Assembly (NCBI GenBank): GCA_963695855.1
Contig: CAVOHZ010000010.1
Location: forward strand, 736,001 to 800,000
Reading direction: 5' to 3'
Source: an uncultured Nitrososphaerales archaeon
GTDB lineage: Archaea; Thermoproteota; Nitrososphaeria; Nitrososphaerales; Nitrososphaeraceae
DNA: 64,000 nucleotides
Shown here: positions 4,808 through 24,298 of the stretch, piece after piece
How the letters are laid out: each line of letters starts with the position of its first letter
How positions within the stretch are numbered: the stretch's first letter is position 1
Position numbers and translations under genes: made by a program
Notes under the pieces: model-generated
The model's input: the letters and a program-made list of their open reading frames with translations, nothing else
What the model was told of the DNA's origin: nothing
Database searches by the model: none

Positions 4808-4899
4808 TCAATTTTGGGTCCTTTAGTATTGAAAGAAAATTTAAATTAAATTGATAGGGTATAGTTTATTGCCTTCTTAATATTATAATATATTATTAT

Positions 4900-5437: not shown

Positions 5438-5830
5438 TTATGCACGAATACAAATAATTGAATCCAATTGGAAAATGCTAGGAATCCAATAAATTTTCCT
5501 ACATAGATAATAATAATGAAATTGTTCCTTTCTATCTTTTGCATATTGCATGGTCGTTTCCATTATCTTCTTTTTAAATAAGGAGCATTTTACTCTTGTT
5601 CCAATTTCAAAGAAGTACAGACATGAGAATATCACCTACTACAATCTCGATATATTACCCCTATCATATTTTCAACTCGCGAATATAGAAAGTGTTCAGT
5701 AACAACTATGTTTCTGCACCTTGAAATGTAAGCACAAATTACAATCTATGCACTACTTGAACTGCTACTCATAACCATCATTTTGCGTTTGCGATTTTTA
5801 CCAATGCAGATACTCTTCATAGATAGATTT
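5438..5830 (-). pseudogene. Possible heavily decayed acyl-CoA dehydrogenase fragments
   Basis: Minus-strand fragments TMQYAKDRKEQF and AVQVVHR...FYIRELKI resemble ACAD C-terminal motifs; many stops, fragment order not colinear. Confidence 0.25.
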
Positions 5831-7114: not shown

Positions 7115-8320
7115 TTATAGTGCCTTAAATTGTTCACTCCATCTCATATAAGCTCTGATCATGTCTATGCTAACACTAGGCTTCCTTATCTTTATTATTT
7201 CCTTAAAATCGTTCATCGATACTGGACGAGGATTAGAATCTTCTTCCAATGCCTTACCGCTATCGAATAATTCATTCACAACACGTAGCTGTGCAGCTTG
7301 GCAAATATCTTTAATATCGCTTGCACTATATCCTTGAACAAGTTTAGCAAGATCTTCAATTTTAAGACCTTTTTCCTTCTTTAAGGGTGCTGTATATTGT
7401 TTAAACAAATAATTTCTTGAATCATTATCGGGTAAAGTAACATAAATTCTCTTTTGAAATCTTCTCAGAAAACCTGCTTCCAAGCTCCATGGTTTATTTG
7501 TTGCACCTATCACGTACAATTTAGATTCTTTGGCTTTGTTATTTATTCCATCCATCTCTGTTAGGAATTGATTTTTAACTCTTATCTCTCCTCCGACCTC
7601 TCCATTTCTTGTACCTAACAGAGAATCTATTTCATCTATGAAAAGTAATATCGGGATATTTTCTGTTTCTAGTAATTTATTGGCCATCTTAAATAACTTG
7701 GAAACGTTTTTCTCAGCCTCTCCTAGCCATTTACTCATCATTGCTGCAGCGTCCACATTTATAAAATATCCATCTATTTCGGCAGCAGCAGCTGCAGCCA
7801 ATAAAGTCTTTCCACATCCTGGAGGGCCATAAAGTAATATTCCACGTGGCCATCCGAGAGGAAAAAGATCAGATCTTTTCATTGGATAAACAATGGATTC
7901 ACGTATGGCTCTTTTAGCGTCATCTAACCCAATAACATCTTGCCATGAAACATTGGGCTTTTCTCTCATAACCAGATTATCAAATTCATCACCAAGTTGA
8001 TCTCTAGACTTTTTCCCGTCCATTGCCATTTTTTTTCCATGACTTTCTTGTTCATTTAAAATTAGGTCATCACTTTTATCATCCTCGAGAATGTTGGACA
8101 TCTGTAATGATTTTATTCTATTCATATAAGCATTAGCTCTTTCCATGTAAATTTTATTTAATTTGTATTCTGGATAAATCTGAATTAACTTATTAAGGGC
8201 CTCTATCGCATGTTGATATAATTGAATAGCTTTTATCCTAGAACCTTGAGAGTCTAACCTTATTGCTTCTGCAGCAAATTTACTAGCACTATTTTCTAAT
8301 TCTTGTGGGGCTAAAATCAT
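7115..8320 (-). CDS. cdvC: Cell-division AAA ATPase CdvC (Vps4-like)
   Basis: N-terminal MIT-like domain; GPPGCGKT, SKWLGEAEK, FIDEID, GATNKPW, C-terminal EQFKAL. Confidence 0.92.
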   Translation of the reverse strand: MILAPQELENSASKFAAEAIRLDSQGSRIKAIQLYQHAIEALNKLIQIYPEYKLNKIYMERANAYMNRIKSLQMSNILEDDKSDDLILNEQESHGKKMAMDGKKSRDQLGDEFDNLVMREKPNVSWQDVIGLDDAKRAIRESIVYPMKRSDLFPLGWPRGILLYGPPGCGKTLLAAAAAAEIDGYFINVDAAAMMSKWLGEAEKNVSKLFKMANKLLETENIPILLFIDEIDSLLGTRNGEVGGEIRVKNQFLTEMDGINNKAKESKLYVIGATNKPWSLEAGFLRRFQKRIYVTLPDNDSRNYLFKQYTAPLKKEKGLKIEDLAKLVQGYSASDIKDICQAAQLRVVNELFDSGKALEEDSNPRPVSMNDFKEIIKIRKPSVSIDMIRAYMRWSEQFKAL

Positions 8321-8518: not shown

Positions 8519-9793
8519 CTATAAAAACGCGGAAATTGTTTGTTGCTTATTATTATCTTTAATTTTTTTTTGATATTCTAATGATTTCTCTAACATTTTT
8601 AAAATTTTCTTATCCTTAGTTTCTTCTACATAAATTACATAAATCAAAGCACTATTTTTATTATTAGATTTCCTAATTACTCTTCCAATTCTCTGAATCA
8701 ATTGATTCATGTTTTGTGTGTTTGAGACTATTATTGCTATACCTACAGAAGGAAGATCAAATCCTATTTCCAAAGTATGAACTGATAATAGCACAAAAAA
8801 TGATTTGCCCCAATCATCTAAAATTGTCATTCTCTGTCGAGATTTAATTTTGTTGTGAATTACTTCAGCCCTTATACTGGATTTGCTAAGCATCTCTCTG
8901 ATCTTATTAATGGATTCAATGGTTTCACTAAAGATCATTATTTTCTCAGTTGGATGGTTTTTAACAATTTTAATAGTTTCATCCAATTTCGACAAAGTCT
9001 CATTCAGTAATTTTTTTCTTTTCTGAACGTATAAAAACCATTGTTTTGCTAATCTCGACTTTATGCCCCCGTATTTTAATAATCTAGAAATTTCAATCGG
9101 ATTAGAAGATTTCAATTTCAACGATATTTCTCTTATTGATTTGGACATATCTTCATATTCTTTTCTCTCCTTAAAATCTAGTTTTACAGGCCTGATTATT
9201 ACTTCCGGTTCAGTTAATCTTCCATCATCTACAGCTTCCTTAATCATATATTTTCTCACAGGCGGTATCAGCGCAATTATTTTGGAATATTTGGGATCTC
9301 TTTCGTCTATTGTAGCTGTTAGACCCAAGATAGCTTTACTGGAATCTTCTTCTAAAATTGAAAAAATATTGCTTAATTTCTTGGCAGTGGAAGAGACAAG
9401 ATGAACTTCGTCTAATATAACCATTTTAGAGTTTCTGATTAGATCAAAATTTCTTATAATGCTTTGATATGTACTAAACGTTATTTCCTTGATATCTTTT
9501 TTCTCGCCATAGAAAACACCGATACATTCTTTTTTTATACCATATTGATTCAATCTTCTGATATTTTGTGCGATCAATACAATACGTGGGACGACAAAAA
9601 GAATATTAAAAGCACCGTGAGAATTTTCTGTTTTTGCTATTCTTCTAGCACATTCAAATGCTATCTCTGTTTTTCCAGTTCCTGTACTGTAAATGATGGA
9701 TCCTCTATTTTGATTTTTTAACCAAGAATTTACGGCTTCTATCTGATCCTTTTCTAAGTTAAATGGAAATTTTAAAGATGTAATTTCTGACAA
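8519..9793 (-). CDS. SF2 helicase, XPB/Rad25-like
   Basis: TGTGKT, DEVH, LGLTAT, QRIGRVIR. Confidence 0.85.
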   Translation of the reverse strand: MSEITSLKFPFNLEKDQIEAVNSWLKNQNRGSIIYSTGTGKTEIAFECARRIAKTENSHGAFNILFVVPRIVLIAQNIRRLNQYGIKKECIGVFYGEKKDIKEITFSTYQSIIRNFDLIRNSKMVILDEVHLVSSTAKKLSNIFSILEEDSSKAILGLTATIDERDPKYSKIIALIPPVRKYMIKEAVDDGRLTEPEVIIRPVKLDFKERKEYEDMSKSIREISLKLKSSNPIEISRLLKYGGIKSRLAKQWFLYVQKRKKLLNETLSKLDETIKIVKNHPTEKIMIFSETIESINKIREMLSKSSIRAEVIHNKIKSRQRMTILDDWGKSFFVLLSVHTLEIGFDLPSVGIAIIVSNTQNMNQLIQRIGRVIRKSNNKNSALIYVIYVEETKDKKILKMLEKSLEYQKKIKDNNKQQTISAFL

Positions 9794-9931
9794 ATACTAC
9801 CGAAATATATCTAATGTGATTAATAATTCTAATCAAATGAACTTGTTTTAGATGGTTATTGCAGACTTTCAATCATGGTTTACAATATTAAAGATTATTT
9901 ATTCGAGTATTTTAATACATAACATCTTTCA

Positions 9932-10438
9932 ATGAATGTATTTGTTTTAATGTTGAAGCAAGACGATCCGACTAAATGTACTGCTGCTAAGTTAAAAAAG
10001 TTTCATCTAATTAATTCAACAACATTCATACCTAAAAACACAATTGTTTTAAATGCATTATCTAAAATTGTGCTGTCCAGAGACGATCTAAATAATGGAA
10101 AATCATTATGTGCTATCGATTGTTCGTGGAATTATATCCAAGAAACACTAAATAAATTTAAAATCATAAAAAAAAGAATCGACAGACGTCTTCCTCTCCT
10201 CCTTGCTGGGAATCCAGTAAATTATACTAAGCTGGGAAAATTAACAACAGCAGAGGCCTTGGCTGGGTCTCTTTATATTCTTGGATATCAATCCAGAGCA
10301 GAGAAATTATTGAATAAATTTAAATGGGGGCACACGTTTTTAGAACTGAATTTGGAAATCCTAAAATCATATAGTGAAACACACAGTCCTGAAGAAATTA
10401 AAAAGATTGAAAAGGAATATTTTCCAAATGTATATTAG
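9932..10438 (+). CDS. tsr3: 16S rRNA aminocarboxypropyltransferase Tsr3 (DUF367)
   Basis: DDPTKCTAAKL, DCSW, LPLLLAGNPVNY, FKWGHTFLELN. Confidence 0.93.
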   Translation: MNVFVLMLKQDDPTKCTAAKLKKFHLINSTTFIPKNTIVLNALSKIVLSRDDLNNGKSLCAIDCSWNYIQETLNKFKIIKKRIDRRLPLLLAGNPVNYTKLGKLTTAEALAGSLYILGYQSRAEKLLNKFKWGHTFLELNLEILKSYSETHSPEEIKKIEKEYFPNVY

Positions 10439-10460
10439 ATAATATATATTTTGTAACAAC

Positions 10461-10745
10461 GTGAGCTAGAGCGCGAGTTACTCATAACGAGAGGAAACTC
10501 CTCCCTCATAGCAGGCACCCAAATTAGCGATAATTAGCTGGAGACAGCTGGCAACGTAACAGAAAAGCTATCTAGAAGAGTCTATATATCTGTGATGGTT
10601 AATCGCCTGAGATCCCCTTACCTAGAATGAAACTGACGACCTGGGTGGAGCAAGGCCAAAACGAGTTATAAGGTTCCTGCACTTACTCAGGTTGGCCGCT
10701 TAGCGAAATCTCGCATAAACAGAAGGAGGGTTATTCCTAGCACAC
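10461..10745 (+). ncRNA. rnpB: RNase P RNA
   Basis: Conserved GAGGAAACUCC (CR I), ACAGAAA, UGAAAC, GGAGCAAGGCC and AACAGAAGGAGGGUUAU (CR V); terminal helix GTGAGCTAG/CTAGCACAC. Confidence 0.93.
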
Positions 10746-10750
10746 CATTG
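10729..10750 (+). repeat. attL-like core (rnpB 3' end) GGTTATTCCTAGCACACCATTG
   Basis: Matches 21204-21220 at 16/17 and 21357-21376 at 17/20. Confidence 0.7.
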
Positions 10751-10803
10751 CTTCAAGTGAGTGTTCTAGCAGTAATTATTTATCTTACATTAATAAAATA
10801 AAA

Positions 10804-11145
10804 TTGTCTTTGGTAACAACGATAACAAAAACAACAACAACGCTAAAAGGAGAAGAAGAAAAGATAGATTCGGTCACTAAATCTTCTAAGCCTTTTATCA
10901 ATAAAATGTTAAAGGATTTGGCAAACAAAAACACAGAAAACGCCAATACTATCTGTAACTATATAATTGCTGAACAAACAGAATTCAATATCAAAGATTC
11001 TACCAAGCTTGGAAGGATAAAGGCACTTGTATATTTATCACGTATCTGCAATGATCAGAATTTTAAAGATATCACAAAACAGGATATTTTGGATCATGAG
11101 AGCGTATTATTTTCTATATTATATTATAAGCTCATATATAATTAA
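10804..11145 (+). pseudogene. Tyrosine integrase, N-terminal (SAM-like) fragment only
   Basis: NANTICNYIIAEQTEFNIKDSTK...FKDITKQDIL resembles the N-terminus of Nitrososphaeraceae integrases (recalled, not searched); no catalytic R-H-R-Y domain follows. Confidence 0.7.
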
Positions 11146-11203
11146 ATTACAAAACTTAATCCTATTTTCAAAAATGATATATTGAATAATTTTCTCTTAA
11201 ATA

Positions 11204-11836
11204 TCAAAATGGATTATTTGTATTTGTTCGAAATCTCCATGTGATGGGTGGTCCATATGGACAAGGACCAGGATTTGGTATTCTCTCAATTATACATCGA
11301 TCATTAATATTTTGAAAATTATTTTTAGTCTGCTGTGATTTTTCTACTATATCTTTAAGATTAGAGTAACTAGAACGCAAATTATTTATGGAATTGGCAG
11401 TCTCCAAGATTTCAGAAATATTTTTGTATGGGATATTGTTTTCTTTTAAGAATCGATTTATCTTCAGCAAATAGTTTAATCGAGGTTTATTGTCCTCATA
11501 AATATAGAAAAATTCTGCGTTACTTGATAAAAATAAATATTCTCTCCATAATCGGTCAATTTTAGGGAAATTTAAATCCAAAATAATGGCTACATCGAGA
11601 GCAGATTTGCCTTCTTTAAATAATTTAAAAGCCTGACTACCTTGTGATAACGTTCTTTTTTTATTCTTATCTTTACCTGATTTTAAGGTTGATTTTTCAT
11701 ATTTTTTTATTATAGGTTTTGTATCCCTTATCGATACGTGAGCGATATGGGCTATTTCACTATATGTCCTTCTTTCCTCATGTAACCTTATTACTAAATC
11801 ACGTTTTTCAAATTTATTTAATAATGAAACTTCCAT
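11204..11836 (-). CDS. HTH-containing protein of a mobile-element-associated family
   Basis: RTYSEIAHIAHVS HTH and second HTH-like SQAFKLFKEGKSALDVAIILDL, followed by coiled coil. Confidence 0.65.
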   Translation of the reverse strand: MEVSLLNKFEKRDLVIRLHEERRTYSEIAHIAHVSIRDTKPIIKKYEKSTLKSGKDKNKKRTLSQGSQAFKLFKEGKSALDVAIILDLNFPKIDRLWREYLFLSSNAEFFYIYEDNKPRLNYLLKINRFLKENNIPYKNISEILETANSINNLRSSYSNLKDIVEKSQQTKNNFQNINDRCIIERIPNPGPCPYGPPITWRFRTNTNNPF

Positions 11837-12086
11837 TCTGGGATACTGTTAAAAAAGGGGTTAATAAACAGTTTGGTATTGTATTTTCATTTATTTATCT
11901 TTTATTACCAATTGATACCTACTGATATCATCTATTTTTTCTCATGCTCATTAAAATTTAGAAAAATCATCAACTACATTACTATTTTTTTTTTCCTTTT
12001 TTCTTATCGAAAAAGAATTAACTAATCTATTGCTATTCTAGCATGTTAATTATAAATTTAGGTGATCGATAATGAAATTTGGAAGG

Positions 12087-12125
12087 TTGGAACCACAATG
12101 CGATGCTCGAAGGTTCCCTTGACAC
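12087..12125 (+). repeat. Element-end motif with eroded att-like core, internal copy
   Basis: TTGGAACCACAATGCGATGCTCGAAGGTT matches 21179-21207 at 26/29, then CCCTTGACAC. Confidence 0.7.
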
Positions 12126-12190
12126 CCCTAAATATTATTTTTATATTTTTTTAAAACAATATCATTTTTTATATAATCTTTATAGAGGGT

Positions 12191-12214
12191 TGTCCACCCT
12201 GTCCACCCTGTCCA
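12191..12214. repeat. 9-bp tandem repeat TGTCCACCC (2.7 copies), iteron-like
   Basis: TGTCCACCC-TGTCCACCC-TGTCCA next to an AT-rich tract. Confidence 0.55.
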
Positions 12215-12343
12215 TTTTTCTATTTTTTCCTGGTAAAATATGGTTGGAGCACCCATAACCGGACAAAAATGTTAAGTATTTTGGTTAGTTATGATATCAT
12301 TATAGCAGTAAATATGATTATTTATGAGGTGAATAGCAAGTAA

Positions 12344-12797
12344 ATGGGTAATTTAACAGATAAAGAGAACCAGATTTTAAAACCTTTAGTAGCCGATTGT
12401 GTTAACTACCGCTTCAATGAGAAGGAAGCATTAGCGTATATTAGAGCAACATTAGGCCGAGAAATATCATCAGATGTCTATTATAATCGAAAAAAGACAG
12501 TAGATAGTGGAGAATATGCAAAAGAATGGCTATCATATTATAGCCGTGTTGGCTTTCTGGTAAAACATAAATAGATTATCGAAGTCTGTGAGATGGTTCA
12601 GAAAGACATGATTAGGAGACTATTTAATAGAACAAAACAAACCCGCAGAAAGGAGGAATCCAGAATTAATAATGAAATTGAGATATGAGATTGGGGAGAA
12701 CGTCAAACTACTGCAAGAATTATCTTTAGGTACTCCAATAATCGCACAGATAAAAGCAAGGATAGATTATGCTGAAGTGCTTCAATCAGGCCAGTAA
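12344..12797 (+). pseudogene. Putative terminase small subunit-like gene, disrupted
   Basis: Helical ~150-codon gene overlapping the TerL start; TAG at 12572-12574 and a frameshift near 12617; continues LQELSLGTPIIAQIK; call is positional. Confidence 0.5.
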
Positions 12798-14300
12798 CCT
12801 GCTATCTTTGGCTAGCAGGCTAGGCGGTAACGACGACGATAACTATTCAAATCTTTTACAGATATCCAAAGACAAACCATTCTATTTTGAACTCCAACAA
12901 CATAACCATAAAGACGACTGTTTCAACTGTCTAATTGGATGCCCACTAAAGAACAATAAGGAATATCCTCTTTTTGAGTATGAAAAAAATATTATTGATT
13001 CATAAGAGGGAAATCAACACGTATTCATTAAGAAGGCTAGGGGTATCGGAGTAACCGAGTTAATTTTACGTTATCTAGCGTGGTCCTGTTTATCATCTGA
13101 CAGGTTGGAAGGTAAGTCTATATTTCTTGTATCAGGTACTCTTGAAGACTTTTCAAATAATATTAAAATTAGATTAGAGACGTTGTCTGAACGCAATTTT
13201 CCTAATGTTAAGTTTGAATCAAAATATACTGAACTGACAATAGGCAAGACATGGATCAAGGTATTTCCTACAAAGAGGATACGGGATTTAAGAGGCTATA
13301 CTGACGTTTCCTATCTTTTCATAGACGATGCCGATTATTTTGATCCTGCAGAACAATTTGAACTAGAATATGTTATCAAGGCATACGAGAAAAAAATAAA
13401 TGTAAGATAATCCTGGCAAGTACACCTAACAAACCATTAGGATTATTTGATCGCATAGAGAGAAACGAAATATTCAAAGACTTCTTTCATAAAATATTCC
13501 TCCATTATACTGTAGGCCTTAACAAGATATACGATTCTGCTTTCATTGAACGAGAAAAGAATGAGGCATACTTTGAACGTGAATACTTTCTCAAATACCA
13601 GGGTCGCATTGGCAATATCTTCAGTCTGCAGGACATAGATACAGCGGTCCAGTTAGGTGTCCAATACAGCGAGTTGCCTATCAATCATGGGTGTCTGCAT
13701 CCTGCAGGTATTGATCCAGGCTTTAGTTCCTCGGTTACAGCAATAACAGTTTGTGAGATAGACGTAGAGAACCAGATCGTTAGAGTCATACTATCTGAAG
13801 AGCATGACAAGGCCAGACCTTCAGCAATAGCAGACAGGGTATTTCAAATACATACAGAAATACCGCATTGCCTGTTTTTCGTAAGTTCTGCCAACCGTGG
13901 TTTCACAAATGTACTAAAATCCAGGTTCGGAGAATCCTTAACATGGGAAAGATCGGAGGAGGTATCTATTGACGACAATTATGTTATACCGGTTCCATTT
14001 CAAAAAGATCACAAATCAATGTTAGAATGGACTTACAATCTTTTATCAAAAAAGAGGATAGCAATCGATCCCAAGTACCAGAAACTTATCCTATCCCTAA
14101 AATCTGCCTACGGTACAGAGTTCGATCTAGATAAGAATATTACAATATACTCAGATTACTTGGACTGGTTACGCTTAAGTCTAAGAGGCGTAAAACTAAA
14201 ACAGATAGATATGCCTGGAATCCATAAATGCCGAGACTATTTTGTATCTACTTCTGATAACAATTATTATTACTCAGATAGCGAAGACTTTCTCTCATAG
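12769..14300 (+). pseudogene. terL: Terminase large subunit, disrupted
   Basis: Joined frames give IKKARGIGVTE (Walker A), LFIDDAD (Walker B), LASTP (coupling motif), FEREY, GIDPG (RNase H-like nuclease); TAA at 13003-13005 and a frameshift in an A-run near 13390. Confidence 0.85.
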
Positions 14301-14686
14301 TTACTGCCCTAATTGTGAATCTTATGGACATTATAATCTACTAAAGGAACGTATCTATCAGGATTCAGAACTTATTAACGGTGATAAACCCCATGATTCT
14401 GAGAACCGGTTACAGTGCTATCGCTGTGGCCTAATAGTGGTAACGGTCCACGCTAAACAGGACTCAAAAATTACTAGAATAAAGGACGTACCAGAATCAA
14501 TCTATGATACTAAAAAGTTAACAATATTACCGTTTAACTAATGGAGTCAGAATCAAAGAAAGTATAGACAATTAATAAAATCCAGGACAATTAGGAAGAA
14601 TCCGGAAGAAGACGATCCAGATATACAGAGATCTAGAGAAAGGATCAAGATTGATAAGTTACGAATCAACAAACGAAGAAGGATAA
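14211..14686 (+). pseudogene. Zinc-finger protein downstream of TerL, disrupted
   Basis: YCPNC...QCYRCG pairs in ORF 14242-14541; reading continues past the stop (EEDDPDIQ...KGSRLISYES). Confidence 0.5.
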
Positions 14687-14734
14687 CCTACAACAAGAAA
14701 CATAACGATACCAATTTTTTGTATAATAATAACC

Positions 14735-14855
14735 GTTGGAGAGAGGGAAGGAAGGATTACAACAAAGACTACAAATATTCAGATATCTGTCAATCATTAT
14801 GGAGCGAATGACCAACCAGATATTCATTCATTATTTGTTTCTTTCTCTCTCCAAC
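14735..14855 (+). other. Long nested stem-loop (candidate ncRNA or DNA cruciform)
   Basis: GTTGGAGAGAG/CTCTCTCCAAC outer stem enclosing CAAATA/TATTTG, ATATCTG/CAGATAT and TCATT/AATGA. Confidence 0.45.
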
Positions 14856-15034
14856 ACCACTGTATGAGCCCACGCACTCTAGATAGTGGTAAAACATGTA
14901 CTACGATGATATTAGATTATCGGATGTAGGTCTGATATTCTTTTCATCAACCGAACTAGTTTTCTCACTACAGAGATTGCCAGTGGTATTAATAATATTA
15001 AGTTCTGACTACTTAAATTTTCAATAACAAGAAT

Positions 15035-15235
15035 TCATTTATTTTGTGCTAATTTTTTTCTCTTTTTCAGATAATCATCCAGCGCTTCAGTAACTAACTC
15101 TGTCAAGGTTTTCCTATCATCTATTGCTAAATGTTTCAATTCCCTTAACATCTCATCAGGTAATCTAATCGTGGTCTTACTGATCCCCTCCTCATCCTTT
15201 TCTTCCTTCATTATTAGTTGTTGACTTGTTGCCAT
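15035..15235 (-). CDS. Ribbon-helix-helix (CopG/ParG-like) regulator
   Basis: KTTIRLPDEMLRELKHLAIDDRKTLTELVTEALDDYL. Confidence 0.85.
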   Translation of the reverse strand: MATSQQLIMKEEKDEEGISKTTIRLPDEMLRELKHLAIDDRKTLTELVTEALDDYLKKRKKLAQNK

Positions 15236-15344
15236 ATAATTTAATATTCATTTCCATGTTTATAATGATTGCCGTTTTGCTGTCAAAACAGATATACATA
15301 TATATTTAAATATTCTCAGGACTAAGAATTAGTAAGAAGTTATT

Positions 15345-16022
15345 ATGGCTAGAAGAGTAGCAGTACTGGTAGAACAGAAGAAGAAAAAAGTACCCGATAT
15401 TTTGAAGGGTTGGAATAACAGAACAGAAGAAAGTTATAGGAAGAATGGTCTTGACGTTCCAGAGCACCTAGATTATCAAAACAAGCATTTTTTGATGTTG
15501 GTTGATGCAGAAAAGTATCCAGTAGAGAAAGAAATAACGAAGATAGTACGGATTAGAGCAATTGACTATAATTCTAAGAGAAAGGAGATGAAAGAATTCC
15601 TTTACGGGTTCGAGAATTGGTATGGGAAGGACTGGCAAGGCCGTAAAGTAGCACCGGTGGCAGATCATGTAGAAGACAGGTACTGGGAGCAGGAGTTAGA
15701 GCCCGTAATAGAGAGAGACCAGATAATAGGATACGATAGAACAGGACAGCATGAAGTCTACTACGTACCATTCAGCAAGAAAGCGGTTGATGACATCATA
15801 GCAAAATCAACCTATGACAACAAGGAACAGATCAAATTACTGGTGAAAACACCTACAATAAAAAATGGTCAGTTCTCTTATGATCAGTTTGTTAACACAC
15901 CATGGGATGAATGTATTACCATGATAATGTATAATGGTGAGCCTTCAAGATATGAGTACCATAAGAAGCAACAGGAGAAGAAAGACGCTGAGCTCGAGAA
16001 ACAGAACAAACAGTACTCTTAA
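15345..16022 (+). CDS. Hypothetical protein (island)
   Basis: 225-aa intact ORF divergent from the RHH gene, TATA-like sequence upstream; no motif recognised. Confidence 0.75.
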   Translation: MARRVAVLVEQKKKKVPDILKGWNNRTEESYRKNGLDVPEHLDYQNKHFLMLVDAEKYPVEKEITKIVRIRAIDYNSKRKEMKEFLYGFENWYGKDWQGRKVAPVADHVEDRYWEQELEPVIERDQIIGYDRTGQHEVYYVPFSKKAVDDIIAKSTYDNKEQIKLLVKTPTIKNGQFSYDQFVNTPWDECITMIMYNGEPSRYEYHKKQQEKKDAELEKQNKQYS

Positions 16023-16470
16023 TAATTCTTATTTTATGTTTTGCACGTTGTTATTTCAGTTTGTAACTAAATAAAAAAATGAAAGGATTAGTAATTAGTA
16101 ATTATTTTTACTATAGTTATGGCAACACTACTAATTTTGCGACACTGGTGAAAAATCGGGTAAAAACAGACTGCCTGCTGAATTCGGGTCATGGCGTGTT
16201 GAATTATGGTGATGCTACAATCTTGCGAGTAGATAAACCAAGAATGACAATTTCATCAAAGATTATAAGCAAACTTTTTCATATTATAAAATATAACCAT
16301 GATTGACGAAAGACGCTTGGCAATCAGAAAAAAATCGATATTTCAGCCACTCAGTCAGCGGGAGGCAGCCATTAACATCATCCGCGTTCCGCTTCTCGTC
16401 ATCCTCGTCGTCTTGGCGCAGCACGCGAGCATCATCATGTCATCGGGAAGTAGTTCTGACGGAGGGCAGC

Positions 16471-17115
16471 ATGGCACAATTTGACTGGTACATCGAAGGA
16501 GCCGAGTTCAGCAATTGCAACTGCGACTACGCCTGTCCTTGTCAGTTCGAGTCACCTCGCCCCACGCACGGACACTGTCGCGGCTTCGCGGCCATTCGCA
16601 TCGATAAGGGCCACTTTGGAGACGTGGCGCTCGATGGCCTCGGCGCAGCCCTCCTCTACGCCTGGCCGGGACCGATCTACGAGGGTAACGGTGAGTGTCA
16701 GGCCGTCATCGATGAGCGGGCGGACGGCAAGCAACGAGACGCTCTTACTACCGTGCTGTACGGTGGCGAGACCAAAGAGGGGGCGACCCATTGGTGGGTC
16801 TATCGGATGATGTCAAGCACCGTCCATCCCCCGCTTTTCAAACACATCGATTTTGACGTGAATATCGAGCGCCGAAAAGCACGCATCGTGATCCCCGACA
16901 TGCTCGAGTCCACCGCCCGTCCGATCCGAAGCCCTGCGACGGGCGCTGAACATCGCGTCCGCATAAACCTCCCGAATGGGATCGAGTTCGACCTCGCCGA
17001 GATAGGCAGTGGTACCACCAAGACGATGGCCTCAATCGCCCTCGACCTCAAGGACACCTACTGTCATTTTACTGTTCTGCGCCAGTCTGGCAAGGGGGTG
17101 GTCCGCTCACGATAG
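16471..17115 (+). CDS. DUF1326 family protein, GC-rich
   Basis: CNCDYACPC...PTHGHC...IDKGHFGDVALDGL...PGPIYEGN; GGAGGG Shine-Dalgarno at 16461-16466 before ATG 16471. Confidence 0.85.
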   Translation: MAQFDWYIEGAEFSNCNCDYACPCQFESPRPTHGHCRGFAAIRIDKGHFGDVALDGLGAALLYAWPGPIYEGNGECQAVIDERADGKQRDALTTVLYGGETKEGATHWWVYRMMSSTVHPPLFKHIDFDVNIERRKARIVIPDMLESTARPIRSPATGAEHRVRINLPNGIEFDLAEIGSGTTKTMASIALDLKDTYCHFTVLRQSGKGVVRSR

Positions 17116-17331
17116 AATCCGACCGCTGAAGACCAGTGTGATCTTGAAGGGCAGTTAGATGATGGCGGAACTCTATTAAAGACGAATGTAAATCCTGACA
17201 TGGAATATCGTATATGTTTTGAATATGAAGATGGACATGGAAATGACTGTAGTAATCTAACATTAGCAGCAGGGGAAAATAAACTATGTACGGTTAAAAA
17301 CTATATTACCATTGGAACGGTGGTGGGCTAA
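17116..17331 (+). pseudogene. C-terminal remnant of a secreted repeat (prealbumin-like fold) protein
   Basis: Open frame without its 5' part: ...GNDCSNLTLAAGENKLCTVKNY...*. Confidence 0.4.
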
Positions 17332-17618
17332 CTCTACATTTTTTTTATTTATTTTTTATTATTACTAAAACACTTGTAATTATTTATTCGTGAAAGTTAT
17401 CCATCAGATGGGCGTGAAGATTCTCCATAAGTTGTGTTACATACTTCTTTTTTTCTTTCTGCATTAAGTTTGGTGCCGCAAAAATACAGTATAGAGATTC
17501 TGGTGGTAACTGTAACGAAATTAATTCAAGTATTTAATAGTATGCAATACGTACGTAACAATGTTCCGTATTATACAACTTTAATAAAATGAAATTGGGA
17601 AGAGTGTTCCGAAACTTA

Positions 17619-18507
17619 GAGCCTATCCCAAAAATAGATAGGAATATAGCTCTTTAGTTTTATATCATACATGGTAATGTTGATTAAGAGTAAAAAGTCT
17701 GTTAGAACAATTACACGTATTCCTGACGATTTATGGAATGCGATTAAAAATATTTTACTAGAATAGAAACCAAGTAACACTATAGGAAGGCCAATTGTTC
17801 CATACAGAAAAGTCCTTGATGGAATAATGTTATCCTCAGAACTGGCTGTCAATGGAAAATGTTATCTAAAGAGTATGTTCTGGTTCAACATCTCATAGAA
17901 GATTTCAAGAATGGAGGCAATCAGGTATTTTTGATAGGGTCTGGACAAGATCGCTACAAAAATATGATACCAGGAAAGGAATCAGATGGAACTAGCAATC
18001 ACTTGATAGTATATCTGTAAAATCGCCTTTAGGGGAGTGATGACTGGACATAATCCAACTGATAGAGGCAAATTAGGAAGCAAAAGACATATTCTAACAG
18101 ATAATGATGGCATTCCTTTGTCTGCACTTATAATATCTGCAAATACTCATGATGCCACTGTTGCAACAAATACAATTGATAATATTGTAATCAGAAGACC
18201 ATCATACAAATCGGATGAGATAAAGAAACAGAATCTATGTCTTGATAAAGCATATCATTCCAAAGAAGTAGAGCAAGAAATTACCAAGAGAGGATACATT
18301 CCTCACATACGATTTAGAAGAGAAAAAAAGAAACACAACAATAAACAGCCAACAAGGAGATGGGTGGTAGAGAGAACAAATTCATGGCACAACAATAGAT
18401 TTAGGAAATTATTTACACGATATGAAAAGAAAGATGAGAACTATCTTGGTCTTGTACAACTAGCCAATAGCCTTATTGTATATAGAGGTTAATTTTGGGA
18501 TAGGCTC
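17619..18507 (+). mobile_element. IS5-family insertion sequence (889 bp), transposase disrupted
   Basis: Perfect 15-bp TIR GAGCCTATCCCAAAA, flanked by TTA on both sides; IPDDLW, TGCQW, NPTDRGKLGSKRH, LDKAY, RWVVERTNSW; stops in the 5' half. Confidence 0.92.
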
Positions 18508-18515
18508 TTAGTTAA

Positions 18516-18731
18516 TCACTCGTAATTATGAGTTGGGCCATCATTCTGTTCGTAGAACTTTACCAGATTAACTAACATTTCGTCATAGGTAGGATTGGAA
18601 TAATATTTAATTGCATGTTCCTTCAATACCCGAAAAGTCTGTTCTGTTATCTGCATGGTCCTGCAGTGCGAAGGAGGATTAACTTGATTCATTTTGGTAT
18701 ATCTACCAACAAGTCTATTATTCCTAGCCAT
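18516..18731 (-). CDS. Small RHH/antitoxin-like DNA-binding protein
   Basis: TMQITEQTFRVLK...TYDEMLVNLV beta-alpha-alpha pattern. Confidence 0.55.
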   Translation of the reverse strand: MARNNRLVGRYTKMNQVNPPSHCRTMQITEQTFRVLKEHAIKYYSNPTYDEMLVNLVKFYEQNDGPTHNYE

Positions 18732-18797
18732 AACGCGATAATAATTAGTTACACGATAGGATATTAAAAATATTTTTAGTTACTTTTTTTTCTAGTG

Positions 18798-18980
18798 TTA
18801 ACACCCTGGAGATACAAGGAAGCTATACCGTGTACATAGTTCACTAAGATTATTTGTAATATCATGAACTACATAATCATATACTGCTATTATTGCTAAT
18901 GCAGATACAAACAGTATAACCAATGCAATTATAATTGTTGTACCATAACTTTTGATTTTATTTTTTTGTTCCGAATACAT
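18798..18980 (-). CDS. Small single-TM membrane protein
   Basis: 60 aa with a long hydrophobic run IIIALVILFVSALAIIAV. Confidence 0.55.
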   Translation of the reverse strand: MYSEQKNKIKSYGTTIIIALVILFVSALAIIAVYDYVVHDITNNLSELCTRYSFLVSPGC

Positions 18981-19063
18981 TTATAGAATATTTACCATAT
19001 AATTCTTCTATTTAAGAATTATAGTACATTCTACAAAACGGTAAAGTTAAAAATTACATACAA

Positions 19064-19506
19064 TTATGCTGTGAAAGTAGAAGGTGTTTTTTTGACAAAC
19101 TCAAATCTTCTTTTTACTTCCACCCTACTGTCTTGAGGTACTTCGTAGTAAACCAACAAATCAAGTAATCCGGTTGTCGAATCTCTATCCCTCTGAGAAC
19201 CGTGTACCTTTCCATTAAGTTCTATTACAATGTCAGATAGAACTTCATATTGTTTCTGCACTTATGTTATTGAACCAGAAAGCAACTCTAAGGAATTAGA
19301 CATTTTCTTCTTTGGATTCCGGGTTTTTTACTACAATAAGTTGAATTAGTGCTATTACTAGTTAGTTTATTTGCGACTCTGTTCGGACAAACATGCTTCT
19401 TTTGTGAAAGAACTTCTCAGTATTCATTAACTGCAGTATTCCAATAGATACGGGTATTGCAACCATATTCACAGGTTTTAGGATAAATATTGCTTTGAGA
19501 ACTCAT
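19064..19506 (-). pseudogene. Disrupted hypothetical protein with N-terminal Cys/His metal site
   Basis: Fragments YPKTCEYGCNTRIYWN...KKHVCPN, MSNSLELLSG and QKQYEVLSDIV...NGKVHGSQ separated by stops and frameshifts. Confidence 0.5.
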
Positions 19507-19512
19507 TTCTGC

Positions 19513-19818
19513 TTAGTGTCTTTCATAAGAATCCAGGAGTCTGCTTATCTCTTCGTCATACGATTCACCATGTTGGCGATTCTTTTTTAATCTGCTATCT
19601 GTTTTTCTGGTTATATACATAGTAACCTTCTCGTCTTTTTCGTCTTTTTCAACATAAAACTCACCACCATGTACGTCTAGATGATGATCGTAACAAAGTG
19701 GAATCCTTATCCACTGTATTCCAAGGGGTCCCATATCTACAACGTCGCCCAGGAGCATATAACCGGCTACAGGATTTTCACATTGAAGAATAGAACATAA
19801 TATTGTTGGTGGATTCAT
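19513..19818 (-). CDS. Hypothetical protein: Cys/His N-terminus and RHH-like C-terminus
   Basis: CSILQC...LCYDHH then VTMYITRKTDSRLK...GESYDEEISRLLD. Confidence 0.6.
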   Translation of the reverse strand: MNPPTILCSILQCENPVAGYMLLGDVVDMGPLGIQWIRIPLCYDHHLDVHGGEFYVEKDEKDEKVTMYITRKTDSRLKKNRQHGESYDEEISRLLDSYERH

Positions 19819-19997
19819 TTCTTATGTTTCCCTTCATACTTCTGCAGAATATACTGCATACCTTCCAGAAGCAAAGCATTCAAAGTGATATCATTATCAA
19901 GTGCAATCTGCTTCAGGCGTTTTATATCAGGTGCATCACATCGAAATACCAATTTCTTTGAGTTTGCATCTATCAATAATTCAAGATTCTGTTTCAT
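19815..19997 (-). CDS. Ribbon-helix-helix regulator
   Basis: KLVFRCD...IKRLKQIALDNDITLNALLLEGMQYIL; 4-bp overlap with the next gene. Confidence 0.75.
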   Translation of the reverse strand: MKQNLELLIDANSKKLVFRCDAPDIKRLKQIALDNDITLNALLLEGMQYILQKYEGKHKK

Positions 19998-20062
19998 GTA
20001 TTTATATTTCTTGCATGTTGTATTTATAACTTGTTATAATGCTATACTGCTACACTATACCA

Positions 20063-20533
20063 ATGAAACAAACAATTTCTAAACAATTAGCGAAGGAAGA
20101 AAAGAACAACAAGAAGGATAGAAGGGAGGGCAATGGTCGTGTCCTGGCCCTCTCTAGATATGTCTACCGCCTCCAAGCAAAAGACACGTATTATGTCGAA
20201 TCTGAGACGGCGGATAGTAGATATTATTTCGTACGCTTCAACTATTCCTTTACCGGATGATTCTGCAGTTGCAAAGATTACGAATCGAATCGTTCAGAAA
20301 AGTGTAAACACCAATACGCTGTGGAATATGAGATAAGATTCAATACCATTAAGGAAGTTGAACATTTACCGGAAGAAGTAAGCAACGCTAAGAAGACTGC
20401 AGAAAGAAATTACGAAAAGGAATCTATTAGAACATGGAACGAATTAGAGAAAGCAGAAGCAGAAGATACGACAGAGGCCATAGACTACAGGGGCCAGTGC
20501 CTAACCCACCAAGACGACGACTATTCATTCTAA
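20063..20533 (+). pseudogene. SWIM zinc-finger protein with one in-frame TGA
   Basis: YYVESE...YFV...G*FCSCKD...KCKHQYAV (CxC...CxH); ORFs 20039-20260 and 20321-20533 share a frame. Confidence 0.75.
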
Positions 20534-20563
20534 CCAACCTTTTATTTATTTGTAAAATCGGAA

Positions 20564-20809
20564 ATGGGCCGGAGACGTAAATTCCGTTGGGTTCCGTTGA
20601 CGTCTATATCCGTCTCAGTGGAAATCCTTGATTTAATACAGATACTTAAAGTCAGAAATGAGACATACGATCACCTTCTACGCGTAACGCTGGCAGAATG
20701 GCAGGACCTGCAGGAGTACCGTCTAGACATGGACCAGGTGATAAGATTGAAAGATACTCAGATCGCAACGCTGGAAAATGAATTGAAGGAAAAAATACCT
20801 AACTTTTAA
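20564..20809 (+). CDS. Small RHH-like protein with coiled coil
   Basis: TSISVSVEILDLI...NETYDHLL then heptad-rich tail. Confidence 0.6.
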   Translation: MGRRRKFRWVPLTSISVSVEILDLIQILKVRNETYDHLLRVTLAEWQDLQEYRLDMDQVIRLKDTQIATLENELKEKIPNF

Positions 20810-20888
20810 TGCAATTTCTTCATTTATTTATTTATAAATTTATAAATTTATTACTCTAGCGATATCTAGAAGTCATCTGGCTATCTTC

Positions 20889-20913
20889 TCGGGTTCAAAT
20901 CCCGACGGCCCCG
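20889..20913 (+). repeat. Orphan tRNA 3' fragment (T arm and acceptor strand), att-like
   Basis: TCGGG-TTCAAAT-CCCGA-CGGCCCC-G; no D arm or anticodon arm upstream. Confidence 0.8.
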
Positions 20914-21178
20914 TTTCAAATATGGTTCTATTTAATTCCGGAGTAGAAAGCGGTTGTCCGACACACTTTCTTCATTCCGAAAGCGCAAGTTGCCAATACG
21001 AAGTAGGTAAGTGTAATTATGATAAGTGCTTTATCTTTATTTACAATAGAAAATATTTAGAGGTATATTGAACTAATACACGATCGGAAAAATAATTAGA
21101 TTAACTATCCTCTTCTTTCTAGGAATAAATATATCATCTATTTATTTCATTTAGTATGTTGGTATGGCATGGCTTGGT

Positions 21179-21220
21179 TTGGAACCCTAATGCGATGCTC
21201 TAAGGTTATTCCTTGCACAC
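21179..21220 (+). repeat. attR-like copy of the rnpB 3' end preceded by the element-end motif
   Basis: GGTTATTCCTTGCACAC versus GGTTATTCCTAGCACAC (16/17). Confidence 0.72.
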
Positions 21221-21356
21221 TATCAATCCAAATGAACGTTCTCAGATCTATTTTTGATGATTAATTTCATGATGCTAAAATCTTATCAAATCATAAAGAT
21301 GTTTAGACCTGATGATATGATATTTAAGTTTGAACCATCAATCTTTTGATAAATAC

Positions 21357-21376
21357 TTATTGCCAGCACACTATTG
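21357..21376 (+). repeat. Further degenerate copy of the rnpB 3' end
   Basis: TTATTGCCAGCACACTATTG versus TTATTCCTAGCACACCATTG at 10731-10750 (17/20). Confidence 0.55.
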
Positions 21377-21607
21377 ATAACCAGCAAGTTCAATGTAGTT
21401 TGAGTAACCGTAGAAATCAAGGCTAAATATACTTGATTTGTAATTTCCATTTTTTAACTTGTTTTGTTATTTTATAATATTTTTATAACTAAAATTATAA
21501 ACAAGTTATGTTTAGATTTATAGAAAACAATTTCAATCTTTATAAAAAACCAGATATAAAATAAATATAGTCATGGATTAATATTTTCATGTTATTTCAA
21601 TATGGAA

Positions 21608-23377
21608 TTACTTTGTAACTATTAACATCAATACTATTATTCCAAATGTAACAGATAAGAATATCTTAGTCAAATCCATAGACTTATCCAAGGCTCTCGA
21701 ATAATCTTCAAATTGACCATTGCCCATAACTTTAATTGATGTTTTGCTGTCTAATATTTCGTATTTTGCATTTTTGATTTTTTCTTGTGCTTCAGATAAG
21801 ATTTCAATGAAATATTTTGTTGCGTCATCAAAACTTGTAATTTCTCCAAATGGAAAATATCCCTCGGAAGTCCTAAATCCTGAATTTTCATGCGTATCAG
21901 AGGTACAAATATCTAACAATGTAATGCCCTTTTGTTCAAGATCCTCAATAATATGTTCTCGCAATCCATTTTTCATATTATTTGAATCTATCCAACCAAT
22001 AAAATATTGTTTATCATGAATTTGAATCATAAATATCGATATTCCTGCTTTTCCTAAATCTTTATTATTTATGTCACTTTGGATTCCTCTTGTACTGGAA
22101 TAACTTATTTTAAACTCCGACTGAGGGGAATTTCTTAGATTTCTTAAGCAACTTTTTGCAGCATTTACCATATCATTTCTGCTTGTTTCCTCTAGTTTTT
22201 TCCCCATAGCATTATGGCTATCTACTATTAAAATCTTGTCAAAACCAATTTCTTTTGAATATTTCTCTAATTCAGCTAATATACTTTCTGGAACATCATC
22301 CATACCAACGGGTGAATTGGATAAAATTATAAGAGGTATATTTCCGAATGCAATTCCAGTACAAGTGGAACTTCCATTTGTTATCCTTATAGGAATGGAA
22401 CAAGTAGTTCCATTTTGGATTATATTATATGTTGATAAAGATTCTAAATATTTTACAACCTCTTCACTCGATGGAATATTTAACGAATGATCCGAAACAC
22501 TATGAAATACGATTGATTTATAATCATAGTATTCCCAAATTCTAAATGATAAATTACTTCCTCCTATTGTCTTGAACGGTCCAGGATGTATATCTGGTAA
22601 TACTAAATTTATATTTTCGAAATCATTCCCAAACCTAACAATTCTAGTAAATACCGATGCTTCTCTGGATTTAGAGATCAGAATCCTTTCAATATCTTCA
22701 ACTTTATTTTCTGTCCAGGCAGACATAAAAGCTTGTAAGAGAGAAAAAGTACTTTGAATATATGGACGACCTGATCTATCTACTAATATAGCCCACGCTA
22801 TCCCTAAACCTAATATAATGAAGCCAAAACAGATGGGAAGGGGGTCTGTCAGCCCCTTAAATGAATTTAACGGAGTTATGACAAATAATAAGAGGAATGG
22901 TTGATAGATTGCTGTTTTTATTGCTTTTTTTAGGCCTGCTCCAAAAACTGATGTAAATATACCTATTCTTAACCCAATTGCTACCATCATCCCTTCTATT
23001 ATATGTCCAATAGGAATATTGTCTTTGTTGAATATCATATAGGAAACTATACCCAGAACTAAAATTGCCATCCAAAGAAGATTTGAAAATGCTGAAACAT
23101 GGAGTATCTTGGAAAACTTGTTGACAGGCGTATCACGCAACAAATAAAAATCTAAAAAATAACTACAAATTAAAAAACTTAAACCCAATATAGAATAAAT
23201 GATAATATGAGCTGAATCCTGTAGGAAATAAATTTCTGTTAGTATAATAATTAACAGTGAGCTAATTATAGATATTATTAATGAAACCTTATAAGATGAA
23301 AAGTTTATTCTTGTGAAAGACCATCTTCTGTGGATATTAGAAACACTATCATGGTCCTCTCCCATTACTTGAGCCAC
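21608..23377 (-). CDS. DUF2070 family membrane protein
   Basis: Multi-TM N-half; IHPGPF..GGS, DSHN, DSNNM, TSDTH motifs. Confidence 0.85.
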   Translation of the reverse strand: MAQVMGEDHDSVSNIHRRWSFTRINFSSYKVSLIISIISSLLIIILTEIYFLQDSAHIIIYSILGLSFLICSYFLDFYLLRDTPVNKFSKILHVSAFSNLLWMAILVLGIVSYMIFNKDNIPIGHIIEGMMVAIGLRIGIFTSVFGAGLKKAIKTAIYQPFLLLFVITPLNSFKGLTDPLPICFGFIILGLGIAWAILVDRSGRPYIQSTFSLLQAFMSAWTENKVEDIERILISKSREASVFTRIVRFGNDFENINLVLPDIHPGPFKTIGGSNLSFRIWEYYDYKSIVFHSVSDHSLNIPSSEEVVKYLESLSTYNIIQNGTTCSIPIRITNGSSTCTGIAFGNIPLIILSNSPVGMDDVPESILAELEKYSKEIGFDKILIVDSHNAMGKKLEETSRNDMVNAAKSCLRNLRNSPQSEFKISYSSTRGIQSDINNKDLGKAGISIFMIQIHDKQYFIGWIDSNNMKNGLREHIIEDLEQKGITLLDICTSDTHENSGFRTSEGYFPFGEITSFDDATKYFIEILSEAQEKIKNAKYEILDSKTSIKVMGNGQFEDYSRALDKSMDLTKIFLSVTFGIIVLMLIVTK

Positions 23378-23379
23378 TA

Positions 23380-23547
23380 TTATACTGGAAATATGACTCT
23401 GATCAATATAGAAATTGCTATTAACCCTCCAGTAACCCCGAGAACTATTTCTGGTTTTACCTTGACTCCTTTAGTCTCATCCTCAAAAAATCTTAACAAT
23501 CCTGCGCTAGAAGCGGGTAATGGTGCATTCTTCTTTTTACTACTCAA
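23380..23547 (-). CDS. secG: Preprotein translocase subunit Sec61beta
   Basis: SSAGLLRFFEDE...KVKPE plus TM helix; TTG start inferred. Confidence 0.88.
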   Translation of the reverse strand: MSSKKKNAPLPASSAGLLRFFEDETKGVKVKPEIVLGVTGGLIAISILIRVIFPV

Positions 23548-23847
23548 TTCGATAAACTTCAGCACAGTATTACTTAAATACATATCGGTTTATCTAAAGA
23601 CTACTCGAGACTCGAATTTGAAATTATAGCTATATGATTTTGTTAGTCTTTTAAAAGATCCAAACTAAAACTAATATTTAGAATGTTTGAATGTTTGAAT
23701 AACCATTCGCAAGAAATTAAATATTTTCAATTTAGACTCTTGTTTCAGATTGCTTTATATACATAACCAATATGATAGATTTAGTATCTGCACTTTTTAC
23801 TTGGTAAGGCTTAATAAGAACATATGAAAAGAATAGGTAAATAAAAT

Positions 23848-24156
23848 ATGGCGGTTATTTGTAAAAAATGTGGATTACCTGATGATTTATGCCCTTGTGG
23901 TGAACTAGAAAAGGAAGAAACGAGAATCATAATCCGCCTAGAAACAAGGAGATTTTCAAAGACTACTACTTTGATTGAAGGAATTGATCCTAAAATAACC
24001 AATATGCAAAATATTGTAAAAGAATTAAAGAGCCAATTTGCTTGTGGCGGTACAGCAAAAGACGGGTTCATCATGTTACAGGGGGATCATAGAGATGATG
24101 TTAAAGGATATCTAATAAAAAAAGGATTTAATGAAGAGGCAATAGAAGTTCAATAA
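23848..24156 (+). CDS. Translation initiation factor SUI1 (aIF-1)
   Basis: CKKCGLPDDLCPC, LKSQFACGGT, LQGDHR. Confidence 0.93.
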   Translation: MAVICKKCGLPDDLCPCGELEKEETRIIIRLETRRFSKTTTLIEGIDPKITNMQNIVKELKSQFACGGTAKDGFIMLQGDHRDDVKGYLIKKGFNEEAIEVQ

Positions 24157-24298
24157 TTTGCGCAGTTGAAACAAAGAATTTTTATAGAAACGTCCATTTT
24201 ACAAAAATAGTTTATAAGCTATTATGGCAATATTTATATTGTAGAATAAAACATAAATAATACGGTTTAAGTTATTAAAAAGTTTTATGGTGAAATGA

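Follow-up and report, generated by a model that had tools for sequence, protein, structure and literature searches.

The rnpB gene, which encodes the archaeal RNase P RNA, appears to serve as the integration site of a tyrosine-integrase element in an uncultured archaeon of the Nitrososphaerales (family Nitrososphaeraceae). The DNA analysed, here called the window, is a stretch of 64,000 nucleotides (nt) from contig CAVOHZ010000010.1 (positions 736,001 to 800,000) of assembly GCA_963695855.1. Positions 10746–21220 of the window are very probably foreign DNA that was recombined site-specifically into the last 17 nt of rnpB, an estimate that takes in the arm sites and the switch of target proposed below. 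A tyrosine integrase, encoded just inside the left attachment site (attL), would recombine the attachment site of the element (attP) with the 3'-terminal 17 nt of rnpB. Since the rnpB 3' end would also be present in attP, the gene would be kept whole at attL, and the displaced 17-nt copy would become the right attachment site (attR). The rnpB-specific lineage would derive from a tRNA-targeting ancestor through an exchanged core with the arms retained, and the site would act as a hot spot of the genus (Nitrososphaeraceae, Candidatus (Ca.) Nitrosocosmicus) that gathers varied cargo, tandem units and integrase stumps. The genome holding the window is designated G000; other G numbers refer to genomes, L numbers to loci or contigs, and C10 and C2 to contigs of the same genome as the window.

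The target gene and the two copies of its 3' end are located as follows:

10461–10745, plus strand: rnpB, the archaeal RNase P RNA gene, intact, the proposed integration target (RF00373, 162.6 bits, full model 1–288)
10729–10745, plus strand: attL core, the terminal 17 nt of rnpB, which take in the 3' strand of helix P1, GGTTATTCCTAGCACAC
21204–21220, plus strand: attR core, the rnpB 3' end repeated at a displaced position, with a single mismatch (A to T), GGTTATTCCTTGCACAC

The rnpB gene is single-copy, being the sole RF00373 match in the genome (3,548,682 bases). The two 17-mers are identical at 16 of 17 positions and lie on the same strand approximately 10.5 kb apart, which places a direct repeat of the 3' end of the target gene at both borders of the element. 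With up to three mismatches allowed, the 17-mer was found at these two places only in the window, where 0.04 matches are expected (100 shuffles), and with up to two mismatches it was found at two places only in the whole genome, the reversed-pattern control giving none. An initial annotation of this DNA, made from the sequence alone, had reported this recurrence of the rnpB 3' terminus at 21204–21220 and had named frequent genome-wide matches as a finding that would speak against it; the repeat was confirmed at 16/17 and the pair is unique in the 3.55-Mb genome. In the Rfam alignment, 13 of the 17 core nucleotides fall in the 3'-end P1 segment. The core tracks the rnpB sequence of each species, reading for example ...TTACTCC... 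or ...TTATTCC.... The gene is whole after integration, as seen from the full-length RF00373 match and from a core that is the same as that of the empty site described next.

The comparison of the site covers 21 further genomes of the genus in which rnpB was matched. It is flanked in the window by two chromosomal genes, the first of which has a homologue upstream of rnpB in all 30 family loci compared:

9932–10438, plus strand: left flank, tsr3-like ribosome-biogenesis gene (PF04034, 1.5e-40)
21608–23377, minus strand: right flank, DUF2070 membrane protein gene (PF09843, 1.5e-113)

In one of the genomes, G106 (contig L056), the site is empty: tsr3, rnpB and DUF2070 are contiguous, with DUF2070 approximately 620 bp past rnpB. 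Window positions 8945–10767 align to L056 positions 1–1825 (94.8% identity), 21204–21261 to 1787–1844 (96.6%) and 21264–25000 to 2076–5809 (95.2%). Homology is lost exactly at the repeat and resumes at 21204; the G106 core is identical to the attL core of the window, and the sequence following it is the one that follows attR. It follows from this alignment that the window carries an insertion ending in the two 17-mer copies. An empty site with its junction at the repeat had been proposed in the initial annotation as a check, and it is present here between flanks of approximately 95% identity. When the left flanks of G000, G106 and G048, an occupied genome, are compared, G000 and G048 share 14 derived sites and the other pairings 2 and 6; the corresponding counts for the right flank (11, 13 and 11) favour no pairing. 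The sequences fit a gain of the insertion in the lineage of G000 and G048, and precise loss in G106 may be an alternative to gain.

Sites resembling integrase-binding arms were found beside the cores by comparison with relatives:

10752–10767, plus strand: left arm (P'), TTCAAGTGAGTGTTCT, an inverted copy of the arm left of attR
21181–21198, plus strand: right arm (P), GGAACCCTAATGCGATGC, 5 nt before the attR core
12089–12128, plus strand: internal attR-type junction consisting of a P arm, GGAACCACAATGCGATGC, a 5-nt spacer and a degenerate core, GGTTCCCTTGACACCCC (29 nt are 90% identical to 21179–21207)

The motif of approximately 16 nt lies 5–7 nt to the right of the attL core, and its inverted counterpart lies 5 nt to the left of each attR-type core. 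In G000, G048 and G026, and at the tandem junction of G012, the core has an arm on either side, the two being inverted relative to each other. The left arms are of two types, A and B, matching the two integrase subgroups, and the type-A motif occurs at the same position in G012, G026, G037, G048, G093, G104, G110 and G111. With up to three mismatches allowed, the genome contains the 18-nt arm at 12089 and 21181 and nowhere else, and the reversed control gave no occurrence. Both copies sit 5 nt before a core or degenerate core, the copy at 12089 being followed by GGTT and a core with indels. Because of this internal arm and degenerate core at 12089–12128, the sequence indicates that the window holds two tandem units, 10746–12111 and 12129–21203. 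The first contains the integrase stump, a multi-copy unit and a right arm, and the second contains the rest; the 10.5 kb thus comprises two tandem units, an insertion sequence (IS) and mosaic cargo. From these borders, attP is inferred to consist of an arm of approximately 16 bp, a 5-nt spacer, the 17-bp core, a spacer of 5–7 nt and the inverted arm.

The integrase gene of the window is reduced to its N-terminal domain, the sole part that is kept:

10804–11145, plus strand: open reading frame (ORF) with a tyrosine-integrase N-terminal fragment, catalytic domain missing (homology 10855–11097, tblastn)
11085–12001, minus strand: multi-copy unit of approximately 0.9 kb that abuts and truncates the integrase (approximately 10 copies in the genome, 78–90% DNA identity)

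The ORF begins 59 bp past rnpB and reads away from the core. It has no Pfam or PHROG match, the PF00589 catalytic domain included, and was identified as an integrase stump only through tblastn against its own genome. Residues 18–98 exhibit 47–56% identity to the N-terminal part of four integrase frames of 488–555 amino acids (aa) in the same genome and 59–81% identity to the rnpB-adjacent integrases of relatives, the highest value (81%) being to the G048 fragment. The placement of an integrase fragment about 60 bp after rnpB, also made in the initial annotation, is borne out by this distance and homology. The adjoining multi-copy unit encodes a 210-aa ORF (11204–11836, minus strand); no transposase domain was found in it, and an inverted-repeat search of its ends gave weak AT-rich pairs only. 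Integrase homology with G048 stops at 11097, and G048 continues past that point into further integrase sequence. Since the multi-copy unit begins there and G048 reads through, the truncation is secondary and was not caused by integration. The window copy is a fossil that can no longer move by itself, because its integrase is cut after approximately 98 aa, its attR core is mutated and its interior is mosaic.

The same arrangement is found at other sites of the genus. The insertion of G048 (7 kb) repeats 20 bp of the rnpB 3' end perfectly, and that of G026 (3.1 kb) has an 18-bp repeat. In G012 the core occurs a second time, with another left arm and another integrase fragment behind it, which is the structure of tandem elements. 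The G012 integrase appears full-length by tblastn and was rejected as such; it is broken, with a longest ORF of 183 aa. Common to G000 and G048 are attL and the integrase stump (to 11097), with the 94% identity that their flanks also have, and the final 24 bp ahead of attR, homology in G048 resuming at 21180. The two interiors are unrelated, and over 0.5 kb at the right end identity is only 74–79%, compared with 94% in the flanks. The site has therefore changed its content since the divergence of G000 and G048. Across the 21 genomes, an integrase or stump lies directly after rnpB in ten (G012, G026, G048, G059, G069, G093, G101, G102, G104 and G110), sequence with no integrase match follows rnpB in six (G086, G100, G105, G108, G111 and G113), and one is empty (G106). 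The remaining four contigs (L048, L051, L064 and L066 of G037, G078, G107 and G112) end 3–127 bp past the rnpB 3' end. Such breaks would be expected if the element DNA at the site were repeated or polymorphic, and occupancy by elements would account for the assemblies of the genus that break just after rnpB. In G069 (L055), an inverted copy of approximately 17 nt of the rnpB 3' region lies about 3 kb downstream and may be a chance match or an inverted att scar.

In the wider family, rnpB was found in 94 of 100 genomes, a tally that includes three unpublished genomes (G035, G077 and G099), which enter no other result given here. At 28 loci of other genera, no integrase of this family was detected within 1.5 kb of rnpB by tblastn or by a hidden Markov model (HMM) of the integrase alignment. 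The tsr3–rnpB order is conserved at these loci and DUF2070 is not within 1.5 kb of rnpB; they are unusable as empty sites because DUF2070 does not adjoin rnpB there. On these sequences, rnpB-adjacent integrases appear in this genus only. The closest integrases occur in sequences labelled Nitrososphaerales archaeon, Nitrososphaeraceae archaeon and Candidatus Nitrosocosmicus sp.

A metagenome scan gave 27 integrase loci. In four of these (L101, L103, L105 and L120) rnpB lies directly upstream of the integrase, and the contig of L104 starts inside the rnpB 3' end. Uninterrupted integrase ORFs stand behind rnpB in L103 (495 aa), L104 (476 aa) and L105 (484 aa), and those of L101 and L120 are disrupted. 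The core lies 59–90 bp upstream of the integrase ORF in the window, L103, L104 and L105. The integrase behind rnpB in G102 is near-intact, with one frameshift, and its 422-aa ORF2 scores 28.1 bits on PF00589 (cut-off 27.1), which identifies the catalytic domain in rnpB-adjacent relatives. The L103 integrase scores 26.5 bits on the same model, just under the cut-off, and matches the phrog_1 integrase family (2.6e-18). The profile of 16 aligned family members gave a single weak match, to the XerC-like recombinase 4a8e (E 0.0068), and a phmmer search of PDB sequences with the L103 integrase yielded no matches. Tyrosine recombinases share a catalytic set composed of R, K, H-x-x-R, H/W and the nucleophile Y. 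The residues R214, K246, R340, H341, H359, W362 and Y372 are invariant in the 16 members and may be the catalytic set; in place of the His of H-x-x-R, an invariant Tyr precedes R340 by three residues. The locus L110 contains an archaeal signal recognition particle (SRP) RNA gene (1863–2173, minus strand) approximately 2.5 kb upstream of its integrase ORF start.

The main tree, which is unrooted, was built on the first 175 residues after the N-terminal domain (45 rows, 169 columns); duplicate loci, matches below 140 aa (with G048 kept) and matches below 45% identity were left out. All ten rnpB-adjacent rows fall on one side of a single branch with support of 94/93, and a smaller tree of 24 rows has the same split (99/95). 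Adjacency to rnpB requires one change on the main tree and in 93% of 200 bootstrap trees, and none of 500 label shuffles gave so low a number. The integrases outside the rnpB group adjoin tRNA-Ser(GCT), tRNA-Val(TAC), an intron-containing tRNA or unknown sequence. The window stump could be placed through its N-terminal domain only, in a poorly resolved tree that groups it with the type-A rnpB copies. In the window's own genome, the frames upstream of two full-length integrases (C10:1771462–1773108 and C2:2812–4476) translate the tRNA-3'-end-like peptide GSSPTPGA. No whole tRNA was found at these loci (L068 and L083) by ARAGORN or Rfam, and the stretches coding for the peptide could be incomplete att copies or tRNAs with introns.

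The arm motif of the rnpB sites also precedes tRNA 3'-end-like sequences, by 5 nt, in L106 and L111, both of which carry integrases of the tRNA group. On this basis, the integrase family is inferred to share putative arm-type binding sites, with the core differing by target. On trees that are unrooted, the rnpB-specific lineage may then have arisen from tRNA-targeting integrases by a change of core. The arm and tRNA 3'-end-like cores of L106 (3160 and 4601) and L111 (775) occur without a full tRNA upstream. The two copies of L106 are 1.4 kb apart, just upstream of the integrase, and the copies of both loci could be attP forms or tandem junctions. Beyond the empty site, the initial annotation had proposed looking for occupied sites with perfect repeats and intact integrases and for a clade of rnpB-adjacent integrases; the repeats of G048 and G026, the tandem of G012, the three intact metagenome integrases and the split of the main tree answer these. 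Its idea of an element family that targets rnpB while restoring the 3' end of the gene is supported, in the refined form of a dead, composite copy in the window and of integration at rnpB seen in this genus only.

The alternative that survives best, itself unlikely, is one ancient integration in the ancestor of the genus that was inherited vertically and decayed in various ways, so that rnpB would not be a recurrent target and the lineage would be extinct. It would explain why most copies are stumps or pseudogenes, why the rnpB-adjacent integrases form one group as orthologues would, and why attL and the stump are as similar between G000 and G048 as their flanks are. Against it, G106 is empty and approximately 95% identical to both G000 and G048, and the derived sites of the left flank set G000 and G048 together (14 versus 2 and 6). 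The unrelated interiors of these two genomes, with right ends of 74–79% identity between flanks of 94%, also run counter to simple inheritance, as do the tandem junctions in G012 and the window, the existence of two arm types and the intact integrases on three metagenome contigs.

A target in the spacer just downstream of rnpB, with an incidental overlap with the end of the gene, is still less probable. The G106 flank to the right of the core resembles the arm (TCCAAATGAACGTTCT compared with TTCAAGTGAGTGTTCT), as such a target would lead one to expect, and the 3' end of the RNA used here is the one predicted by the Rfam model. However, the block of identity between attL, attR and the empty site (attB) consists of the 17 nt inside the Rfam gene model, with 13 in the P1 segment. 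The identity reaches at most 3 nt beyond the core, in G048, and the core follows the rnpB sequence of each species.

Two further explanations have very little probability. An SSV-type (suicidal) integrase, with the att site inside its gene, would have been split by integration and would have left its N-terminal piece at attL. Only an N-terminal piece adjoins attL in the window, and archaeal SSV-type integrases do split upon integration according to the available part of PMC7253208. However, the core lies outside the integrase gene, which starts 59 bp past it and reads away, and the integrated copies of L103, L104 and L105 have uninterrupted ORFs of 476–495 aa beside rnpB. At attR the window has no C-terminal piece, and the integrase breaks off at the edge of the multi-copy unit, a point past which G048 reads on. 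A chance match or by-product of local duplication within an ordinary variable region of 10.5 kb would suit a repeat that is short and imperfect (16/17) and a window with no working integrase, but is contradicted by the 0.04 matches expected and the restriction of the pair to these two places in the genome, by the homology break of G106 at the repeat, by the same structure in three other genomes and by the conserved inverted arms flanking the cores.

Several observations weigh against the proposed site-specific integration into rnpB. The remainder of the integrase is not encoded anywhere in the window, and this copy, having no catalytic domain, gives no sign of activity. No repeated core was found in G093, G104, G105, G108 or G113 despite the presence of rnpB and DUF2070 on one contig. 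The occupied genomes are kin and not independent samples, and few events may underlie many sites. Two integrases inside the rnpB group, L107 and L110, are yet not beside rnpB, and their loci contain no core-like sequence at up to three mismatches and no arm motif upstream. In the tree of the N-terminal domain (85 columns), the two rnpB subgroups are not united; two changes are needed, and one change suffices in only 26% of the bootstraps. Free attP forms were not detected in the viral contigs scanned with the G102 integrase protein and with the exact type-B 20-mer and type-A 24-mer arms. The arm-like flank to the right of the G106 core belongs here as well, and the "empty" site of that genome could itself be a still older scar.

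To our knowledge, rnpB has not been reported as an integration site, and island-mapping papers could hold such a report. A search of the open full-text literature, with subscription journals outside its scope, gave no report of this kind in the text available; where rnpB is named in these papers, it serves as a marker or as an entry in an annotation list. Islands, prophages and plasmids with tyrosine integrases are described as entering the 3' part of tRNA or transfer-messenger RNA (tmRNA) genes (Williams 2002, as cited in the available text of PMC6563490 and PMC12540744). As these sources describe them, such islands share with the present element an integrase just inside attL, an attP that restores the 3' end of the gene, a displaced partial copy as attR, and the formation of tandem arrays and decay at a hot spot. 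The closest integrase relatives of the rnpB lineage adjoin tRNAs, as those islands do. The present case differs in its target, which is RNase P RNA, and in its core of 17–20 bp, which is the 3' strand of helix P1 and not a T-arm or acceptor stem.

The survey of integrated elements in Thaumarchaeota by Krupovic et al. 2019 counts 39 targets in tRNA genes, 15 that are intergenic and 14 in protein genes, with att sites of 17 bp at the median, and describes tandem integrations and the cryptic element NitKor-E1 with terminase and no capsid genes (PMC6563490, available text). The phylum, the short att sites and the tandem integration are common to those elements and the one described here. RNase P, rnpB and Nitrosocosmicus are not mentioned in the available main text of the survey, and an unannotated rnpB among its 15 "intergenic" targets is conceivable (PMC6563490). 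Neither RNase P nor rnpB is mentioned in the available text of a review of archaeal tyrosine recombinases (PMC8371274). A parallel at another RNA gene is phage phiEf11 of Enterococcus faecalis, whose att site is ffs, the 4.5S/SRP RNA gene, and was called a novel att type in 2025 (PMC12540744). The available text of that paper names only tRNA/tmRNA and csRNA as RNA-gene targets. Both cases involve a tyrosine-integrase element at the 3' end of a structural RNA gene other than tRNA; phiEf11 differs in being a bacterial phage at another RNA gene, with a 27-nt core and an integration that alters the RNA 3' end (PMC12540744, as far as available). In the present case, unlike in phiEf11, the occupied gene has exactly the core sequence that the empty site has.

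What appears to be new is an archaeal rnpB target with a defined att architecture, and the mechanism of integration is of the known tRNA/tmRNA type. The balance of evidence leans towards a wider proposal, in which a still-active archaeal integrase lineage in Ca. Nitrosocosmicus-like ammonia oxidisers switched from tRNA to rnpB by keeping its arm-binding sites and exchanging only the core. Throughout the genus, the rnpB gene would then serve as a landing pad for small elements that bear a terminase and lack a capsid (satellite-like), and it would be the first such att site described in archaea. If so, the lineage would provide a natural system for how integrases change target; arms shared between different cores (tRNA and rnpB) make a tractable case of the evolution of integrase specificity. 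The case is a delimited one, with an empty site, several occupied sites, tandem junctions, intact environmental integrases and a defined attP architecture. Island finders and surveys of archaeal mobile elements seek tRNA/tmRNA targets, and because rnpB is often left unannotated, islands at rnpB would be filed as "intergenic" or missed. The hosts are soil ammonia oxidisers, a group without genetic tools, for which an integrase with a 17-bp target is a candidate tool for site-specific integration; that target sits inside an essential, single-copy, conserved gene.

The cargo of the element is a mosaic of the following segments:

12299–16138, plus strand: cargo block akin to another integrated element of the same genome (C10:1493345–1497401, 79–89% DNA identity)
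12769–14300, plus strand: terminase-large-subunit-like pseudogene in three ORF pieces (12769–13005, 13105–13410 and 13674–14300), 87–89% identical to paralogues
15035–15235, minus strand: RHH gene in the cargo block
16139–17154, plus strand: unique GC-rich segment with a DUF1326 gene (16303–17115; PF07040, 9.2e-54; GC 0.498)
17614–18513, plus strand: IS5-like insertion sequence with a DDE fragment at 18037–18492 (PF01609, 5.4e-15)
18514–20809, no strand assigned: small element genes (RHH, 19815–19997; DUF7557-like, 19513–19818; others) with paralogues in other integrated elements

Most of the cargo ORFs have no Pfam or PHROG match. An intact 479-aa paralogue of the terminase (L128:1345–2784) matches phrog_2 TerL (1.5e-18). 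The paralogous element on C10 (at approximately 1.52 Mb) carries PriX-like primase, TerL-like and SWIM genes. The terminase-carrying paralogue of the same genome draws on the same gene pool as the block at 12299–16138 with its terminase pseudogene; unlike the window element, such copies sit elsewhere in the genome. The segment at 16139–17154 has approximately 50% GC in a genome of approximately 30% GC, has no DNA paralogue in its own genome, and its protein paralogues are only 25–31% identical; these features suggest foreign DNA that joined the cargo of the element recently. The IS5-like copy, one of dozens in the genome, is inserted in element DNA, with flanks collinear with C10:1480273–1481797. 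It is 97.8% identical to C10:1669660–1670560, an identity that suggests recent transposition.

Base composition also changes along this region, with a GC content of 0.27–0.32 in the flanks compared with 0.33–0.50 between 12 and 21 kb. Two genes upstream of rnpB, at 7115–8320 on the minus strand, the chromosome encodes a Vps4/CdvC-like AAA ATPase with an MIT domain, an ordinary cell-division gene in this phylum.

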